In this document: one piece after another, positions 21-6,841 of the stretch
How the letters are laid out: each line of letters begins with the position of its first letter
Numbering within the stretch: the stretch's first letter is position 1
Origin: an uncultured Lentisphaerales bacterium
Lineage (GTDB): Bacteria > Verrucomicrobiota > Lentisphaeria > JABSQK01 > CAJWLW01
DNA length: 64,000 nucleotides
Direction of reading: 5' to 3'
Assembly (NCBI GenBank): GCA_964460215.1
Contig: CAYWQM010000005.1
Coordinates: forward strand, 16,211-80,210
Program-made: the position numbers and the translations under genes
Notes under the pieces: model-generated
Told to the model about the DNA's origin: nothing
What the model saw: the letters and a program-made list of their open reading frames with translations, nothing else
The model's database searches: none

Positions 21-2546
21 TTGCAGTGGGCAAGCGAGTGCCGGGACCCGGCGGTGCATATTTTTCGGGTTGCCAACGGCTACGAACTCTCTGTCGACAA
101 CGTTGACGTGTCCATCAATGACCACCCCCTGATGGCCAATGCCGAGTTGGCCGACCTGCGCAAAGCCAGGACGGCTGTCCGCACCGTGCTCGTTAGCGCC
201 GTGACCGAGCTGCTCGCCAAGCTGCCGGCTGATATTCGGGTCGAAAGCAGCCTGATTTACAGCCGGGACTACTGTGACGCGCTCAATCGCCTCATCGATC
301 ATTATTCCGCGCTCAACGTCGTCGATGAACAATTACAACGACTTGACCGTGACGATTATGATGATTTCTCCGCCTTCGAAGTGACTGTCAGGAAGGCTGT
401 GGAATTCGAGGATTATTCTCGAACTGACTCTGTCGAGCGGCTTCGCAAAAGTCTTGTTCGCAAACGCGATCTACTGGATAACAAAGCCCTGCCATCGATC
501 TCATGCTCGTATACGCGGCTTCCAACCGAGCAGCTGGATGCGATAGCTGTTGCGATCAGCGATCTTGAAACGCGTTGTGCCAAAGAGGCCGAACAAGTGA
601 GGGGCGAACTTGGAAAAATGGTGGACTCCCTTGGGGAGGACAGCTCGCTTGACGAACTGCTGACGCACCTGCGGGCATCGGAGACCGACTATGACAATGC
701 CCGGCAGCTCCAGTGCGGTGATTTTATCTCGATCGGGTCATTCACTGTTGAAGTGAATCGTCTTACCGGCATGTCCCTGGTCTCTCGCCGTCAGAATCCT
801 TTTGACGTTGACATGACCTATTTCGATGTCGACGAAATTTTCAAGCCGTTGATGGTGAGCTTCGTAAGCACACGAATGGAACAGGCCGACAGCGTCGATG
901 TTGAGCAGGCCGAGAAGGCGATAAGCCAGGAGATTCTCGACAGTATTAAGGAGATACGGGACACTTTCCGTTTCGATAGTCGAATTATCGACCTGGAATC
1001 GGCAACAGAAGATAATCCACTGGTTCTCTGCCGGGCTGGTGATTTCGGCCATACGGCCTATTACGTCATCAGTGGCGAATTGTCAGTGATTATGGATCGT
1101 GCCGCGCTTCAGCTCCAGTCGTCGGACGGCCGTCATACGGTCAAGAAGAGAGGATTATCCAAGATCATTGCCCAGCTTTGGCAGAACAAGAGCCAGGTAA
1201 GGGAGTGGCGATCATCCGTGAATAAGGGGAAGGGGGACGCCGGCGATGCCGGCGAGTATATGTTCCTGCAGGATTCCGATGCCGTCTTTGACGTCCGCGA
1301 AGGCGGTCGATATGAGTTGGTGAATACCATCTGCGCCGGCGAGCTTGTCGGTGAGCTTTCGGCGCTCGGCCGCACACCGCGGACGGCAACGATTTTGGCC
1401 AACAAAAGCGCCCGGGTGCTGGAGATTCGCTGGCAGGGACTTCGTGATCTTCGCAGCAGCAGCAGCATCTTCAAAAACTTGACCGATGCCGCCTATCGCG
1501 AGCGTGCTCTCGACATGCATCTGCGCCGTATCGACGCCTTCAGTAAGCTTGATGATGCCGATCGCCAGCGCCTCGCCGAAAAGGTCGAGCTCAGAACGAT
1601 CGGTGACTTCAACTGGCACATGTCTTTTATCGACCTCATGAAGGAAGGCTCTGATGCCCGTGACGAGATTGAGCCCATCGTCGCTGCGGAGGGACAATAT
1701 CCGGATGCGTTGATTCTCATACGCTCCGGTTTCGCCCGGGTTTCCCGTGAATATCATCATGGGCAGCGCACCGTCAGCTATCTCGGCAAGGGCGCGTATT
1801 TCGGCCTCGACGAACTCCTCCATAATTATCAGAATCCAGATGATGAAATCTGCTTTCGCCATAGCCTGAGGGCGATCGGTTACGTCGACGTGATCTTTAT
1901 CCCCCGTGAGGTTGTTTATGAGTACATCTTTGATAAAGATGCCAGCTTTAAGCCGCAGGCTGCCGATACGCACAGCGAACTGCGCACCTTCGACATCAAC
2001 GTTGATCAGATGGTCGTCGAGGAGTTAGTCGCTCAGCGCAGTATCAACGGCACGGCTGCAATGCTCATCGACATGGATCGCTGTACGCGCTGCGATGACT
2101 GTGTCCGGGGCTGTTCGAATGCGCATGATGGCAATCCGCGTTTCATTCGCCACGGCCCGATTGTTGACAACTTCATGATTGCCAACGCCTGTATGCACTG
2201 CAATGACCCGGTCTGCATGATCGGTTGCCCGACCGGGGCGATCCAGCGGAATATGGGCGGCGGCGAGGTCATTATTAACGATCTCACCTGTATCGGCTGT
2301 TCTGTGTGCGCCAACAGCTGTCCGTATGACAACATCCGGATGGTGAATGTGATCGACGATGAGGACAGTTATGAGTATGTGTCTGACCCCGCGACAGAGC
2401 GACCGGTCCAGAAGGCCACTAAATGCGACCTCTGTGTCGACCAATTGGGTGGCCCGGCCTGTGTCAATGCCTGTCCCCACGACGCCCTGAAGCGTGTCAA
2501 TCTGAGCGATGTCCCGTCACTCGAAGCCTGGCTGAATGAACGATGA
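21..2546 (+). CDS. Multidomain redox/sensor protein: ~330-aa coiled-coil-rich N-terminal region of unknown function, two cyclic-nucleotide-binding (CAP_ED) domains, C-terminal 4x[4Fe-4S] ferredoxin module (DmsB/NrfC/HybA-like)
   Basis: cNMP phosphate-binding cassettes are visible in the translation: GDFGHTAYYVISGELSV...GELVGELSALGRTPRTATILA and ALILIRSGFARVS...GKGAYFGLDEL. Four Cys clusters follow: CTRCDDCVRGC, CMHCNDPVCMIGCP, CIGCSVCANSCP, CDLCVDQLGGPACVNACP. The stop overlaps the next gene's start (ATGA at 2543-2546). The 5' end may be truncated or the start uncertain because the ORF begins near the window edge. Confidence 0.7.
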   Translation: MQWASECRDPAVHIFRVANGYELSVDNVDVSINDHPLMANAELADLRKARTAVRTVLVSAVTELLAKLPADIRVESSLIYSRDYCDALNRLIDHYSALNVVDEQLQRLDRDDYDDFSAFEVTVRKAVEFEDYSRTDSVERLRKSLVRKRDLLDNKALPSISCSYTRLPTEQLDAIAVAISDLETRCAKEAEQVRGELGKMVDSLGEDSSLDELLTHLRASETDYDNARQLQCGDFISIGSFTVEVNRLTGMSLVSRRQNPFDVDMTYFDVDEIFKPLMVSFVSTRMEQADSVDVEQAEKAISQEILDSIKEIRDTFRFDSRIIDLESATEDNPLVLCRAGDFGHTAYYVISGELSVIMDRAALQLQSSDGRHTVKKRGLSKIIAQLWQNKSQVREWRSSVNKGKGDAGDAGEYMFLQDSDAVFDVREGGRYELVNTICAGELVGELSALGRTPRTATILANKSARVLEIRWQGLRDLRSSSSIFKNLTDAAYRERALDMHLRRIDAFSKLDDADRQRLAEKVELRTIGDFNWHMSFIDLMKEGSDARDEIEPIVAAEGQYPDALILIRSGFARVSREYHHGQRTVSYLGKGAYFGLDELLHNYQNPDDEICFRHSLRAIGYVDVIFIPREVVYEYIFDKDASFKPQAADTHSELRTFDINVDQMVVEELVAQRSINGTAAMLIDMDRCTRCDDCVRGCSNAHDGNPRFIRHGPIVDNFMIANACMHCNDPVCMIGCPTGAIQRNMGGGEVIINDLTCIGCSVCANSCPYDNIRMVNVIDDEDSYEYVSDPATERPVQKATKCDLCVDQLGGPACVNACPHDALKRVNLSDVPSLEAWLNER

Positions 2547-3361
2547 CGCTCCACAAGCGGCGGCGCCGGAACATCATATTATTCTCTGTCGTCAGTCTGC
2601 TGACCATCTGGATCAGCTTCCTCTGCGACCGCAATCATACCGATATCCGCCACTTCAGCGGTTGGCTGATGTTCGCTCTGGTCGTTTTTCTCGCCGCTTT
2701 TAATCTGCGTAAACGCCTGAGCTTTCTGCCCATCCTGCGAGCGGCTACATGGCTGCAACTGCATATTTATCTGGGCCTGTTCTGCGGCCTGATCTTTGTC
2801 ATACACGTTGGTGTTGGGTTGCCCAATGGTCCTTTGGAAATAACCTTGTCGCTCCTATTCCTTCTTGTGTTTGTAAGTGGGATTGTCGGGCTCGCCCTCA
2901 GCCGGATCTTACCGCGTCGCCTCACCAATCAGGGTGAGGAAATTATTTTTGAGCGGATGCCGATCTACCGTCGCCAACTCAGGGACAAGGCAGAGGAGCT
3001 GGTCCTGTCGTCATTGACGTCCAGTCGATCCAAGATGCTTGCGGAGTTCTATAGCGAAGAGCTGGCAGTGTTTTTTGTTGCACCGTCTTATCTGCTCTAT
3101 CACCTGTTCATGGGGCAGCGACCGTTGAATCGGATTCTGGAAAAAATCGATAATCAGAAACGCTATTGCAATGACTCCGAGTGTGAACTGATCGAGCAGC
3201 TTCGCGAATTAGTAGTCAAGACGTACGAACTTGATCGCAGCCAATATTTGCAGGGGCTCCTGAAGGTTTGGCTGTTTATCCACATTCCTGCCACCTTCGC
3301 GCTGTTCGCTTTCATTGTCCTGCATGTGATCCTCATCCACGCATATGTGGGGTCAGGCTGA
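2543..3361 (+). CDS. Polytopic membrane protein (~5 TM) with conserved intramembrane His residues; putative heme-b/quinone-interacting anchor (DUF4405-like guess)
   Basis: Hydrophobic segments LFSVVSLLTIWISF, WLMFALVVFLAAF, LHIYLGLFCGLIFVIHVGV, ITLSLLFLLVFVSGIVGLAL and WLFIHIPATFALFAFIVLHVILIHAYV contain His. Start is coupled to the upstream stop; its own stop (TGA 3359-3361) overlaps the next ATG (TGATG). Confidence 0.5.
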   Translation: MTLHKRRRRNIILFSVVSLLTIWISFLCDRNHTDIRHFSGWLMFALVVFLAAFNLRKRLSFLPILRAATWLQLHIYLGLFCGLIFVIHVGVGLPNGPLEITLSLLFLLVFVSGIVGLALSRILPRRLTNQGEEIIFERMPIYRRQLRDKAEELVLSSLTSSRSKMLAEFYSEELAVFFVAPSYLLYHLFMGQRPLNRILEKIDNQKRYCNDSECELIEQLRELVVKTYELDRSQYLQGLLKVWLFIHIPATFALFAFIVLHVILIHAYVGSG

Positions 3362-5760
3362 TGCAATTGCAGGAATTCCGCCATGATCAGAGCAGCTATG
3401 AGCGACCCGGCCAGAAATGGGTCTGCGGCCGACTGGCAGACGGCCGGCCATGCAGCTGCGGTCCGAAACCCAATGGCCGATGCAGCCAGTCGGATAATCC
3501 ATGCAAGCCACAGCTGAGCCTTCGCTGTAAGCGTAATATGCTGGCCCTGTTTGTCTTTCTCGGCAGTTGGGTGATTGTCGGCGTGGCGCTGTTTCTGCAA
3601 AATGAAACGGATGTATACATCTCGCCGGGTGAACTGAGCTTCCATCACGGGATAGTTCGCGACGAGGACGGGAAGACGAATTGCGGAGCCTGTCATGACA
3701 TGAACGCCGATCATGGTTGGCTGAACGCCGCGGTGTCGCCAAAAACCGCCTTGGACCACAGCCGGAAATGTCTGGATTGTCATTTTCTTGACAAGTCTGA
3801 CGATTTGCTTAAGCCGCATGGCCTTGCCAGCGGGCGTGGATTTTCCGCTGCGATCAAGGAGAAATTTGATGTGGATGTGGCGTGTAGCAAATGTCACGTT
3901 GAGCATAAGGGGTTCAATGCTCCGGTCACCGTGCTGAGCGATGCGCAGTGCCAGTCCTGCCACGAAAAACAGTTCGATGGCTTCAATCAGGGGCACCCGG
4001 AGTTTACCCTGTACCCCTACGCCAATCAGGTCAGCGTCAGGTTCGACCACCGACAGCATCTGGACGTCAAGTCAAAGGAGATGAAGGCGATCGGCGGCAA
4101 ATGCAGCCATTGCCACGTCCCGTCTGCGTCCGGGCGAATGATGCAACACAGGCCTTTTAAGGAGACTTGTGCTGCTTGTCATCTCAACCCGAATCTATTT
4201 AACAAGTCTTCGGCACAACTCACCCTCCTCAAGCTCAACCCACCCAGCGCCTCCGATGCGGCAGATATCACGCCGTTGATGCGGCTTTTCTCTCCGGAAT
4301 TGAATCGTCTTGCAGAGAGTGAAAGCGCCGATCCTGTCAGTGTCCATATGGCGACTCGACGCTTCCTCCGTCAGTTGCAGCTGGGGTTGCCGCTGGTCGA
4401 ATCCCAGTCTGGCCCGGTACGATCTATCTTTGAACGCCTGTCTGCCGACACGGTAAACGAAACGATGGGGGCTGAGGAGCTTGACCGCAGCCTGTTCTAC
4501 TATGATTATGCCAAAGACACTGAACAGGGTAAGGCTTGGATATACTGGCTGCTGGCCTCCCGCTTAACCGACAAAGACATCAATGCTGTTGAAGAACGGC
4601 TTGTGCAGCGCTTCGTGGATGTGAACAGTGGGGGCCTGAGCGGGGAATTCGAGTTCTTCAAGCTGCTGGACGCGGAGAATTCTCTGCATGATCTCGTCAC
4701 CGCCGCCGTGGCCTCCGGCAAGCTGGCAGCCTACACGAAGGGGGTGATCGCTGCCGATGATCCCGAAATTGAGGCGATTGTCAACTATCTGAAGTCTGAC
4801 CAGATGAAGATGCATATTGCCGAGATCGTAAAATCTATTCCACCGAATTTAAAACTATCGACCCCCGAGAAGGCGCTCAAGAAGCAATTGGACAAGATCG
4901 CAAAAAAACTCAGTCCCGAGGAGAAGGCGCTCCCTGTCCGTGACCGGCTTTGCAAGCTCATCCTGGAGGACCGGGCAAGGGGAAAGTTCAAAAAATACAG
5001 TTCCTCGTTGTTGAAGAAAAAGGACAAAAACCTTTACACCTACCTCTCCAAGACCAAGGCTGCGGACCTGGAGAAGACAAAGGTGGATGATTGCCTGAAG
5101 GCCATCGACTCGAGCCTCTCGAAAATCGCCAACCTCCTGGCAATCGAGGGCGGTGCGGCGTCGAAGTTGCCGGTCATGCCGAAGGGGTTCAAGCCCCGCT
5201 GGGAGCCGCCGCCAGCCGCGACGGTCCGCCATCGATTGGAGGTGGCATCGATAAGCAATTGGCGCTTTGAGGCGTCCAATGATTCTTTGATCTACACCAG
5301 CACTGGCCATGCGGATCCGGTCTTCAAGGCGGTACATGAACTGGCGGCGCAATTGAGTGACAAGGCATCTCCAAAACTCCTTGCGGAGTTGTCACGAGGA
5401 GGGCAGTGCCGGTTCTGTCATCAGCCGGAAATAAGCTTTCGCACGGAGCCGCGGCAGGTGCAGATGAAGTGGGTAACGGCCAAGCCCAAGCGGTTGCAGA
5501 AATTCAATCACGAGCGCCACGCCGGCCTTGATTGCCGAACCTGTCACCAGTTCAAGGAAGAAAATAGCGCTGTTGCCACTCTTTTCCCCGGCTACAAGGG
5601 AAGCTTCGAGCCGATTAGTCGGTCGCTGTGCGCGAGGTGCCATCAACCCCAGAAGGTTGGCGACGGCTGTCTCAAGTGTCATAACTACCATCCCATGTCA
5701 CTGGCCCATGACAAGCAGCAGCACGAATACCTCCTGCGCCTCTTCCGCCGTCAGAAATAA
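3361..5760 (+). CDS. Decaheme c-type cytochrome, N-terminal Cys-rich cytosolic tail plus single TM anchor
   Basis: Ten CXXCH motifs: CGACH, CLDCH, CSKCH, CQSCH, CSHCH, CAACH in the N-terminal block and CRFCH, CRTCH, CARCH, CLKCH in the C-terminal block. TM helix MLALFVFLGSWVIVGVALFL is preceded by CGRLADGRPCSCGPKPNGRCSQSDNPC. A ~400-aa heme-free, Lys-rich middle region is present. Start chosen at the ATG at 3361 (ORF track opens at 3268 but that 5' part overlaps the upstream gene). Confidence 0.8.
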   Translation: MQLQEFRHDQSSYERPGQKWVCGRLADGRPCSCGPKPNGRCSQSDNPCKPQLSLRCKRNMLALFVFLGSWVIVGVALFLQNETDVYISPGELSFHHGIVRDEDGKTNCGACHDMNADHGWLNAAVSPKTALDHSRKCLDCHFLDKSDDLLKPHGLASGRGFSAAIKEKFDVDVACSKCHVEHKGFNAPVTVLSDAQCQSCHEKQFDGFNQGHPEFTLYPYANQVSVRFDHRQHLDVKSKEMKAIGGKCSHCHVPSASGRMMQHRPFKETCAACHLNPNLFNKSSAQLTLLKLNPPSASDAADITPLMRLFSPELNRLAESESADPVSVHMATRRFLRQLQLGLPLVESQSGPVRSIFERLSADTVNETMGAEELDRSLFYYDYAKDTEQGKAWIYWLLASRLTDKDINAVEERLVQRFVDVNSGGLSGEFEFFKLLDAENSLHDLVTAAVASGKLAAYTKGVIAADDPEIEAIVNYLKSDQMKMHIAEIVKSIPPNLKLSTPEKALKKQLDKIAKKLSPEEKALPVRDRLCKLILEDRARGKFKKYSSSLLKKKDKNLYTYLSKTKAADLEKTKVDDCLKAIDSSLSKIANLLAIEGGAASKLPVMPKGFKPRWEPPPAATVRHRLEVASISNWRFEASNDSLIYTSTGHADPVFKAVHELAAQLSDKASPKLLAELSRGGQCRFCHQPEISFRTEPRQVQMKWVTAKPKRLQKFNHERHAGLDCRTCHQFKEENSAVATLFPGYKGSFEPISRSLCARCHQPQKVGDGCLKCHNYHPMSLAHDKQQHEYLLRLFRRQK

Positions 5761-6031
5761 TCGAAACCTGTAGCCATATCACCATAAATTTCCCGTAGTA
5801 ATTTGTTCGTGATGTTCCCCCACATCGCGGTTGCCCGCGTGTGAATCAGCAGGGCGCCTTGATCTATCATCGGTCTCACCGTAAACGCATCTGCGGCCCG
5901 CCAACGTGCCGGGTGCCGTCCCGGTGGTCGGCATATCACCCGTTAACTTTATGTTGGTCAATAAAAAGAAGAGGCGTAGATTAGAAAAGCATGTCCCTTT
6001 GCTTTATGGCATATGACAATGACAGGGTGAC

Positions 6032-6841
6032 GTGACAATGAAACTTACAGCAGAAGAAGTAGCCAAATTTGAAGACGAAGGATATTTATTTTTTCCCAAC
6101 AAGTTTTCCAGTGCCGAGGCGAAGGTCCTGAAAAATGCCGCGGGTGATGTCTATGCTATGGACCGCGAGGAAGTCTGGAGGGAAAGTTCCGGTGTCGCCC
6201 GCACGGCATTCGCGGCCCACACGTACCATGAAGCCTTCATGCGCCTTGGCTGCCACCCGAGATTGATCGGGCCTGTAAGCCAGCTGCTCGACGGGCAGGT
6301 CTACATACACCAGTATAAAGTCAATGCCAAAGCCGCCTTCGACGGTGACGTCTGGCAATGGCATCAGGACTATGGCACGTGGAAACGCGACGATGACATG
6401 CCGGAACCCAGGGCCATGAATATCGCTGTATTCCTTGACGATGTGACCGCGGCCAATGGGCCCCTTTTGTTTATTCCAGGCAGCCACAAACTCGGCGTCA
6501 TAGATGCAGGGCACGACCTTGAAACCACCAGCTATCCGCTGTGGACACTGGATCGGGAAACAGTAACTGAACTGGCGGAACGGGGTGGCTGTGTCGCGCC
6601 AACTGGTCCGGCAGGCAGTGTCCTCCTGTTTTCATCCCTGATGGTTCACGCAAGCCCTCCAAACATCAGCCCATTTGGACGGATCATCGTTTATCTTTCC
6701 CTGTGTCAGGTTGATAATCACATCCGGCAATTCAACCGCGAGGAATGGATTGCACACCGTGATTTCACACCAATCGAGCCCCTGGCCGATGATTGCCTCG
6801 AAGAACTGATAGGTGACGGTGGACAAGGGGCAGCGGAGTAG
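6032..6841 (+). CDS. Phytanoyl-CoA dioxygenase (PhyH) family Fe(II)/2-oxoglutarate dioxygenase, ectoine-hydroxylase-like
   Basis: VWQWHQDYGTWKRDDDMPEP...NGPLLFIPGSHK resembles the EctD/PhyH signature (W-H-x-D ... GPL..IPGSHK). Confidence 0.75.
   Translation: MTMKLTAEEVAKFEDEGYLFFPNKFSSAEAKVLKNAAGDVYAMDREEVWRESSGVARTAFAAHTYHEAFMRLGCHPRLIGPVSQLLDGQVYIHQYKVNAKAAFDGDVWQWHQDYGTWKRDDDMPEPRAMNIAVFLDDVTAANGPLLFIPGSHKLGVIDAGHDLETTSYPLWTLDRETVTELAERGGCVAPTGPAGSVLLFSSLMVHASPPNISPFGRIIVYLSLCQVDNHIRQFNREEWIAHRDFTPIEPLADDCLEELIGDGGQGAAE

Follow-up and report, generated by a model that had tools for sequence, protein, structure and literature searches.

PtdG of the PCC4/ptd cluster, a predicted inner-membrane-anchored decahaem cytochrome with a conserved cytoplasmic cysteine-rich tail

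In a 64-kb stretch of DNA from an uncultured Lentisphaerales bacterium (contig CAYWQM010000005.1, positions 16,211 to 80,210; the whole stretch is called the window below), the open reading frame (ORF) at 3361-5760 of the forward strand had been predicted to encode a decahaem cytochrome with a cysteine-rich tail. Judged by its motifs and by gene order, this ORF is PtdG, the "10-haem MHC" (multihaem cytochrome) of a gene cluster known as PCC4 or ptd, and the window holds the PtdE-PtdF-PtdG part of that cluster. Residues 1-59 of PtdG would lie in the cytoplasm, residues 60-79 would cross the membrane once, and the remainder, with ten c-type haems, would be periplasmic. Thus, the original prediction of an N-in anchored protein, with a Cys-rich domain on the cytoplasmic side and ten c-type haems on the periplasmic side of one polypeptide, agrees with the topology that we infer. 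We consider it probable that PtdG is the inner-membrane-anchored decahaem cytochrome of an envelope electron conduit, and that its tail is a docking element stabilised by a metal bound to four cysteines (Cys4).

The cluster was named PCC4 by He et al. 2017 (PMC5566968), who described a porin and three "periplasmic" multihaem cytochromes with 4, 5 and 10 haems, together with an inner-membrane protein that has five transmembrane (TM) helices, the motif W-x3-H-x13-H on TM3 and TM5, and SGXXG on TM4. In their subgroup II, a PF13247 Fe-S gene is found upstream of the gene for the inner-membrane protein. A bioRxiv preprint of 2023/24 (10.1101/2023.11.21.568154) renamed the cluster ptdABCDEFG and, in its accessible text, calls the function completely unknown. 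The window has the same gene order of a PF13247 Fe-S/cNMP gene, a gene for a 5-TM protein and a gene for a 10-haem cytochrome. The motif set of its PtdF is identical to the description in PMC5566968, ptdG is located directly downstream of ptdF, and, as in subgroup II, a PF13247/cNMP gene (ORF 21-2546) is present upstream of ptdF. The Lentisphaeria-like copy in the window differs in having a tail with one module, a linker that is Lys-rich and not acidic, and a PtdE that is longer by about 250 aa. The decahaem protein is called periplasmic in PMC5566968 and in the accessible text of the preprint. The term "cysteine-rich" occurs nowhere in PMC5566968, the preprint's accessible text describes PtdG only as a periplasmic deca-haem protein and does not mention an N-in anchor, and a literature search for other descriptions yielded nothing further. 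As far as these texts go, two features of PtdG appear to be undescribed, its N-in anchor and its cytoplasmic Cys4/Cys8 domain, which is specific to the family.

The cytochrome ORF extends, as originally predicted, from ATG 3361 to the stop codon at 5758-5760 and encodes 799 aa. Its start codon shares one base with the TGA of the upstream ORF (TGATG), and the ptdE and ptdF ORFs are directly upstream and translationally coupled to the cytochrome gene. The ten CXXCH motifs start at residues 108, 137, 175, 197, 248 and 270 and, after a long gap, at 683, 725, 757 and 770, and the predicted 6+4 split was thus confirmed. In comparison, 20,000 shuffles of the same residues contained 0.04 CXXCH motifs on average and two at most. 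Exactly ten motifs are also present in 71 of 73 full-length homologues from related loci, and in homologues with 25-34% identity every haem motif and ten additional His are invariant. The cysteines outside the haem motifs are concentrated at the N-terminus, where six of the eight fall within the first 59 residues (Fisher p = 4e-6).

The single TM helix at residues 60-79 was confirmed, and nothing hydrophobic precedes the tail. Lys and Arg residues are more frequent on the N-terminal side of the helix than on the C-terminal side (4.4 versus 1.3), and the N-terminal side was richer in 69 of 71 homologues. The attachment of c-type haem occurs on the periplasmic side. The charge bias and the periplasmic haem attachment together point to an N-in protein whose tail is cytoplasmic and whose haem domain is periplasmic. 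A periplasmic, disulfide-rich tail was rejected, because it conflicts with the same charge bias and with periplasmic haem attachment on a protein that spans the membrane once.

This topology depends on the start codon. If translation began at the internal M60 (MLALFV...), the tail would be untranslated, the helix would be a cleavable signal peptide, and PtdG would be a soluble periplasmic decahaem protein. An ATG is indeed present at 3538, and the location given in the two publications, for the preprint in its accessible text, would suit this start. However, the protein sequence of the tail is conserved across many phyla (183-186 of 188 sequences), a protein beginning at M60 would have no charged n-region, a conserved cleavage motif does not follow the helix, and translation from ATG 3361 is coupled to the stop codon of ptdF. 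In addition, the window was compared with its closest relative, which has a PtdG with 90% identity and belongs to the Lentisphaeria metagenome-assembled genome (MAG) UBA8228 (contig L005). Nine synonymous and five nonsynonymous differences were found in the tail. In the 31 codons upstream of ATG 3361, in contrast, the cytochrome frame has one synonymous and seven nonsynonymous differences, and the PtdF frame has six and two. The substitution pattern thus changes its frame at ATG 3361, showing that translation starts there, and both alternative starts, TTG 3268 and ATG 3538, were ruled out by it. Therefore, a start at M60 is extremely improbable and effectively refuted, and the helix would be a signal anchor.

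Next, the conservation of the tail was considered, on which the original prediction had hinged. The tail contains the motif Y13-x-R-P and one module with four cysteines, W20-x-C22-x8-C31-x9-C41-x6-C48-x-P50. A Cys-rich tail had been predicted correctly, but with five cysteines, whereas there are six (22, 31, 33, 41, 48 and 56). Only four of these, C22, C31, C41 and C48, are conserved in the family, namely in 183-186 of 188 ten-haem sequences (at least 97%) across phyla, whereas C33 and C56 are not. Y13, R15, P16, W20, C22, G23, C31, G34, P35, G39, C41, C48 and P50 are each present in at least 180 of the 188 sequences, and G28, with 175, is the sole listed position below that number. In 61 of 73 homologues, the tail has two modules with eight invariant cysteines. 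Module 1 follows the pattern W-x-C-x8-C-x2-GP-x3-G-x-C-x5-C-x-P, and module 2 the pattern GDRW-x-C-x9-C-x2-GP-x-PDG-x-C-x6-C-x-P-x-RSLR-x-RR, after which the TM helix begins. The two modules are homologous, with their cysteines in register (hhalign probability 94%, E 1.5e-7). A tail with a single module is found in the window and in scattered lineages, including a Planctomycetaceae MAG, some Alphaproteobacteria and a Pirellulaceae MAG. In its first half, the module of the window aligns by MAFFT with the first half of module 1, and in its second half with that of module 2. The window would thus have the one-module form of a family-specific Cys4 metal module that is a tandem 2 x Cys4 duplication in most homologues.

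A profile of the tail was used in an exhaustive hidden Markov model (HMM) search of 1.84 billion representatives, which yielded 676 clusters at 50% identity; a word-indexed search with the same profile had returned only 16 contig-end fragments, and all counts given here are from the exhaustive search. The tail domain was located at about residues 1-110 in all of the top 150 of the 676 clusters, and 94 of the 105 matches longer than 600 aa contained exactly ten CXXCH motifs. As the profile places the domain exclusively at the N-terminus of members of this family, the domain is specific to PtdG proteins. It had no match in Pfam, among PDB sequences or among PDB folds, and comparisons with zinc ribbons, rubredoxins, ferredoxins, CCG domains and metallothioneins revealed no similarity to a described family in either sequence or fold. 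The AlphaFold2 (AF2) model of the two-module tail was confident (pLDDT, the per-residue confidence score, 86.8) and showed hardly any regular secondary structure, in line with what a metal-knuckle fold would look like. Together, the four or eight invariant cysteines, the confident model and the cytoplasmic location suggest that each module holds a Cys4 metal site. The last tail cysteine precedes the TM helix by about 8 residues, placing the module at the membrane surface.

The proteins encoded directly upstream bear on the possible function of the tail. PtdE contains two cNMP-binding domains (about residues 406-515 and 553-636; Pfam cNMP_binding, E 1e-20) and a ferredoxin domain at residues 688-822 that matched Fer4_11 (PF13247) with 41 bits versus a cutoff of 26.2. 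Its Cys cluster motifs start at residues 688, 724, 757 and 802 (window 2082-2486), and all four are complete: CxxCxxCxxxC, CxxCx4CxxxCP, CxxCxxCxxxCP and CxxCx7CxxxCP. The PtdE sequence thus argues for four [4Fe-4S] clusters, compared with two in the accessible text of 10.1101/2023.11.21.568154. The N-terminus of PtdE is neither hydrophobic nor of the twin-Arg type and is without an export signal. Scores for the NCBIfam equivalogs DmsB, DsrO, HybA and others were far below each cutoff; by these profile scores, PtdE is a Fer4_11-type four-cluster ferredoxin subunit outside the subunit family of every named enzyme. A counterpart was found in the equal position in about 65 of 73 related loci. The N-terminus of the window PtdE is about 250 aa longer than that of a typical PtdE (about 540-600 aa), and residues 1-400 had no Pfam match. 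In L005, the PtdE orthologue is split into two overlapping ORFs (3775-5154 and 5075-6394), and the UBA8228 MAG probably carries a frameshift or an assembly error at this site.

In PtdF, TM4 and TM5 are separated by a cytoplasmic helical domain of about 115 aa. Its motifs are W70-x3-H74-x13-H88 on TM3, S112-G-x-x-G116 (SGIVG) on TM4 and W243-x3-H247-x13-H261 on TM5, and the four motif His are invariant in 67 of 67 homologues. These residues suggest that PtdF binds two b-haems, the inner one presumably on H74 and H247 and the outer one on H88 and H261. Pfam matches of the family were weak (DUF4405 in 9 of 14 members, best E 1.5e-6; Ferric_reduct, PF01794, in 5 of 14, best E 0.017), the matches of the window PtdF to DUF4405, Ferric_reduct and Ni_hydr_CYTB were all below the gathering score, and a PDB profile search with PtdF returned noise only and no sequence match. 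A natural PtdE-PtdF fusion of 840 aa is encoded at L002 5482-8004 and comprises the cNMP domains, four FeS motifs and the 5-TM part with its four His. Because PtdE is fused to the N-in end of PtdF in this Rosetta-stone protein, PtdE is expected on the cytoplasmic face of PtdF. Fusions had also been suspected in 14 loci with long upstream ORFs, but these turned out to be open-frame artefacts without FeS motifs.

According to the mechanism that we favour, the tail of PtdG would be positioned at the cytoplasmic mouth of the dihaem-b protein PtdF, with PtdE and PtdC, a TM-anchored FNR/[2Fe-2S] protein encoded off the window, as its neighbours. It would clamp the PtdG helix to PtdF and organise the cytoplasmic donors. 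Electrons would pass from NAD(P)H to FAD and the [2Fe-2S] cluster of PtdC, to the four [4Fe-4S] clusters of PtdE, to the two b-haems of PtdF, and onward to the c-haems of PtdG and PtdD and then to PtdA and the porin PtdB. Docking is preferred to an obligatory relay because the number of modules varies among lineages, and because the PtdG homologue P0016 (L085 2503-4779) has lost the cysteines, yet keeps PtdE and PtdF, which are encoded directly upstream. P0016 retains the Y-H-R-P motif without any Cys module and looks like a rare natural "tail-less" variant.

Several points weigh against this mechanism. The tail does not contain a CXXC knuckle, which is unusual for structural Zn sites. Both modules are retained in Nitrospirales clusters that do not have PtdE, which suits electron entry at least as well as docking. 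Furthermore, He et al. 2017 (PMC5566968) proposed that electrons flow inwards, from a donor outside the cell to the quinone pool. Finally, structure prediction, which had been recommended for the region between the haem blocks, gave a helical but low-confidence middle region and a pLDDT of 50 for the full-length protein, so that the domain picture of the middle region rests on the alignment.

The first two of these points are the reason why a redox function of the tail remains a serious alternative, which we regard as possible rather than probable. In that case, an Fe-S cluster or a rubredoxin-type Fe would be held by each Cys4 module, and electrons would be relayed between the cytoplasmic donors, the clusters of PtdE or the [2Fe-2S] of PtdC, and the b-haem on the cytoplasmic side of PtdF. 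PtdG would then have redox centres on both membrane faces, in keeping with the original prediction. All other subunits of the cluster carry redox cofactors. The eight invariant cysteines, with all-Cys ligation, Gly/Pro-rich loops, a "C-x-P" ending and no CXXC knuckles, are consistent with such a site, the two-module tail of 86 aa is big enough for two clusters, and the module ends close to the helix. The Nitrospirales clusters (L065 4059-11932; also L079) are instructive in this respect. They encode a pentahaem protein, a porin-like ORF of 473 aa, a TM-anchored Fer2-only protein of 159 aa, a tetrahaem protein, PtdF and PtdG. Both PtdE and a FAD/NAD domain are missing, and the cytoplasmic side has only the Fer2 protein, a reduced PtdC, but PtdG retains the two-module Cys tail. 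On the other hand, the lineages with one module, including the window, and the Cys-free P0016 with its PtdE and PtdF argue against an obligatory link, and similarity to known Fe-S domains was found neither in sequence nor in fold. Four-cluster ferredoxin subunits normally contact the membrane b-haem directly, as in FdnH-FdnI. A gene for a copper/heavy-metal P-type ATPase is located just downstream of the Nitrospirales cluster.

Alternatively, the tail might be a sensor or regulator, that is, a thiol, iron or redox switch that gates or stabilises the conduit, possibly together with the cNMP domains of PtdE. With two such domains in PtdE, the complex is apparently regulated from the cytoplasm, the tail is dispensable in rare lineages, and many homologues have one or two extra, non-invariant cysteines beside the ligand cysteines. 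However, nothing in the tail is specific for sensing, and all eight cysteines and the flanking Gly, Pro and Trp residues are invariant across phyla, which is more typical of a fixed structural or cofactor site. Regulation as the function of the tail is therefore quite improbable, and docking is retained as the favoured function.

With respect to the direction of electron flow, we favour outward transport. In the opposite direction, as modelled by He et al. 2017, extracellular Fe(II) or Mn(II) would supply the electrons, which PtdAB, PtdD and PtdG would hand on to PtdF for the reduction of quinone, leaving an accessory role to the FeS protein, the FNR protein and the tail. The carriers of PCC4 include Fe(II)-oxidising Zetaproteobacteria and a Hyphomicrobium from Fe/Mn filters, and the dihaem-b scaffold of the cluster is shared with quinone-reactive cytochromes b (PMC5566968). 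However, nearly every locus pairs PtdF with a cytoplasmic four-cluster FeS protein, and the loci that were checked in detail encode an NAD(P)-binding FNR/[2Fe-2S] protein, a layout that corresponds to outward export of the NOX/FRE type. Moreover, the family occurs widely among heterotrophic Verrucomicrobiota, Planctomycetota and Lentisphaeria, and these are not known to oxidise Fe(II). Taken together, inward flow seems unlikely to us. A more far-reaching combination, in which the tail is a new Cys4/Cys8 Fe-S or Fe fold, the PtdG helix completes the five helices of PtdF to a NOX-like six-helix core, and the conduit is driven by NAD(P)H or ferredoxin independently of quinone, is doubtful as a whole.

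The periplasmic part of PtdG was characterised by alignment of the 188 sequences. Outside the CXXCH motifs, exactly ten His residues are invariant or nearly so, namely 96, 153, 182, 212, 230, 233, 650, 717, 720 and 777. Therefore, all ten haems are probably bis-His ligated, and ten extra His for ten haems point to an electron-transfer wire and not to a catalytic site. The haem-free region between the two blocks had been described as an insert of about 400 aa, Lys-rich and partly repetitive. Its length was correct (408 aa), but it is not an insertion, because every family member has such a region. The gap between haems 6 and 7 ranges from 190 to 689 aa with a median of 281, and with 413 aa the window is about 130 aa above the median. 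What is specific to the lineage is only this length and the differently charged linker. Lys accounts for 9.6% of the haem-free region in the window, compared with a family median of 3.3%, but outside of about residues 481-600 the region is not Lys-rich. The linker is hypervariable and of low complexity, and in most homologues it is acidic, with "DDLL"-type runs. A tandem repeat was not found in the Lys-rich segment, and the sole internal similarity, a 20-aa match with E = 0.028, did not bear out the repetitive character. The middle region would thus comprise a conserved helical domain, a probably flexible linker, which is Lys-rich here, and a segment that belongs to the tetrahaem block. In this last segment, W634 and Y645 are each present in 183 of the 188 sequences, H650 in all 188 and D652 in 178, and AF2 predicted beta strands at residues 634-637 and 642-646. 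The variable length of the flexible linker suggests that the tetrahaem block is tethered and not rigidly packed; as a speculation, it could reach outer-membrane components.

Comparison with known systems yielded similarities of arrangement. As in NOX/FRE (FRD) enzymes, a cytoplasmic NAD(P)H/FAD module would feed two stacked b-haems with H-x13-H on TM3 and TM5. However, in ptd the modules are individual polypeptides and are supplemented by a four-cluster FeS protein and multihaem cytochromes, five TM helices instead of six are predicted for PtdF, and Ferric_reduct remained below the threshold. In the transmembrane redox complexes Tmc, Hmc and DsrMKJOP of sulfate reducers, an electron circuit across the membrane is likewise formed by a multihaem cytochrome c in the periplasm, a cytochrome b in the membrane and a Cys-rich Fe-S protein in the cytoplasm. 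In these complexes, the Cys-rich unit is a separate HdrD-like CCG subunit, whereas the ptd domain is fused to the cytochrome c and contains no CCG motif; a sequence relationship to them was not detected, and ptd does not include an NrfD-like subunit. In NapC/NirT/CymA and in ImcH and CbcL of Geobacter, an N-terminal helix likewise anchors a periplasmic multihaem domain, but these proteins are quinol dehydrogenases with essentially no cytoplasmic domain, whereas PtdG has a conserved one of 50-90 aa. The NapC/NirT type was rejected, as there was no Cytochrom_NNT match at E <= 0.1. MtrA/DmsE proteins share with PtdG the ten CXXCH motifs and the presumed role in a porin-cytochrome conduit. They differ in haem spacing, and PtdG additionally has the long haem-free region and the membrane anchor. 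Membership of this group was also rejected (TIGR03508, 17.4 bits versus a cutoff of 192.2).

To analyse the distribution of the cluster, one genome per species was scanned with an alignment of a 10-sequence subset, a set of 25 sequences being too poorly conserved, and PtdG relatives were detected in 270 genomes. On homologue contigs, the gene order is a FAD/NAD/Fer2 protein, a c554-like tetrahaem protein, the cNMP/FeS protein, the His-rich membrane protein and the decahaem cytochrome. The tetrahaem, four-motif FeS and membrane protein genes precede the decahaem gene in nearly all of 73 usable loci, and a pentahaem gene is often near it. Loci with the conserved order are from Verrucomicrobiota, Planctomycetota, Alphaproteobacteria, Myxococcota, SAR324 and others. 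Directly upstream in L005, a porin-like ORF ending with ...EFQIKF is followed by genes for an FNR/Fer2 protein and a tetrahaem (4-CXXCH) protein, whereas this contig does not contain a pentahaem gene. As L005 thus continues upstream into further cluster genes, the window probably starts inside a larger cluster, whose porin, tetrahaem, pentahaem and FAD/NAD/Fer2 genes would lie before its first base; a second multihaem ORF is not present in its 64 kb. The FAD/NAD/Fer2 protein PtdC of L005 (1169-2536) has an N-terminal hydrophobic helix followed by a basic stretch, and is probably membrane-anchored with cytoplasmic catalytic domains.

With 270 species-level genomes and 676 tail clusters, PCC4/Ptd is a widespread candidate for extracellular electron transfer. 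Published models contain a soluble periplasmic decahaem protein (for the preprint, in its accessible text) and, in He et al. 2017 (PMC5566968), a quinone-linked membrane protein. The N-in anchor, the conserved cytoplasmic Cys4/Cys8 domain and the FeS and FNR partners on the cytoplasmic face change the model to be tested. These three results suggest a NOX-like operation, in which the complex may transfer electrons directly between the periplasm and cytoplasmic NAD(P)H or ferredoxin and would bypass the quinone pool. If this were true, Verrucomicrobiota, Planctomycetota, Lentisphaeria, Alphaproteobacteria and Nitrospirales would have a conduit from the cytoplasm to the cell surface that is driven by NAD(P)H or ferredoxin. 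The tail is a small, well-defined and confidently modelled domain. The features of the window are compiled in Table 1.

Table 1. Coordinates in the window of PtdE, PtdF and PtdG and of the predicted parts of PtdG
Feature	Position	Strand	Remarks
PtdE, 841 aa, predicted cytoplasmic	21..2546	+	Two cNMP-binding domains and a C-terminal four-cluster ferredoxin domain
PtdF, PCC4 "IMP" (inner-membrane protein), 272 aa	2543..3361	+	Five predicted TM helices, two b-haems inferred
PtdG, predicted N-in anchored decahaem c-type cytochrome, 799 aa	3361..5760	+	
Predicted cytoplasmic Cys-rich tail, aa 1-59	3361..3537	+	
Single TM helix, predicted N-in signal anchor, aa 60-79	3538..3597	+	Kyte-Doolittle hydropathy above 2.5
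Predicted periplasmic hexahaem block, aa 96-274	3646..4182	+	Six CXXCH and His 96, 153, 182, 212, 230, 233; Pfam Paired_CXXCH_1, Cytochrom_c3_2
Haem-free middle region, aa 275-682, 408 aa	4183..5406	+	Helical domain, variable linker, conserved segment before haem 7
Lineage-specific Lys-rich linker, about aa 481-600	4801..5160	+	8-12 Lys per 40 aa (sliding composition)
Conserved W634...Y645-x4-H650-A-D652 segment	5248..5325	+	Supplies one of the ten invariant non-CXXCH His
Predicted periplasmic tetrahaem block, aa 683-777	5407..5691	+	Four CXXCH and invariant His 717, 720, 777; Cytochrome_C7 43 bits, E 3e-11

The next gene 3' of ptdG (6032-6841) encodes a PhyH/ectoine-hydroxylase-like Fe(II)/2-oxoglutarate dioxygenase. 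Its score with TIGR02408 was 141 bits and thus below the cutoff of 336, it is absent from the other ptd loci, and it is probably unrelated to ptd. The 64-kb window contains no tRNA genes, its cumulative GC skew climbs steadily, and the G+C fraction falls to about 0.50 in the last 2 kb.

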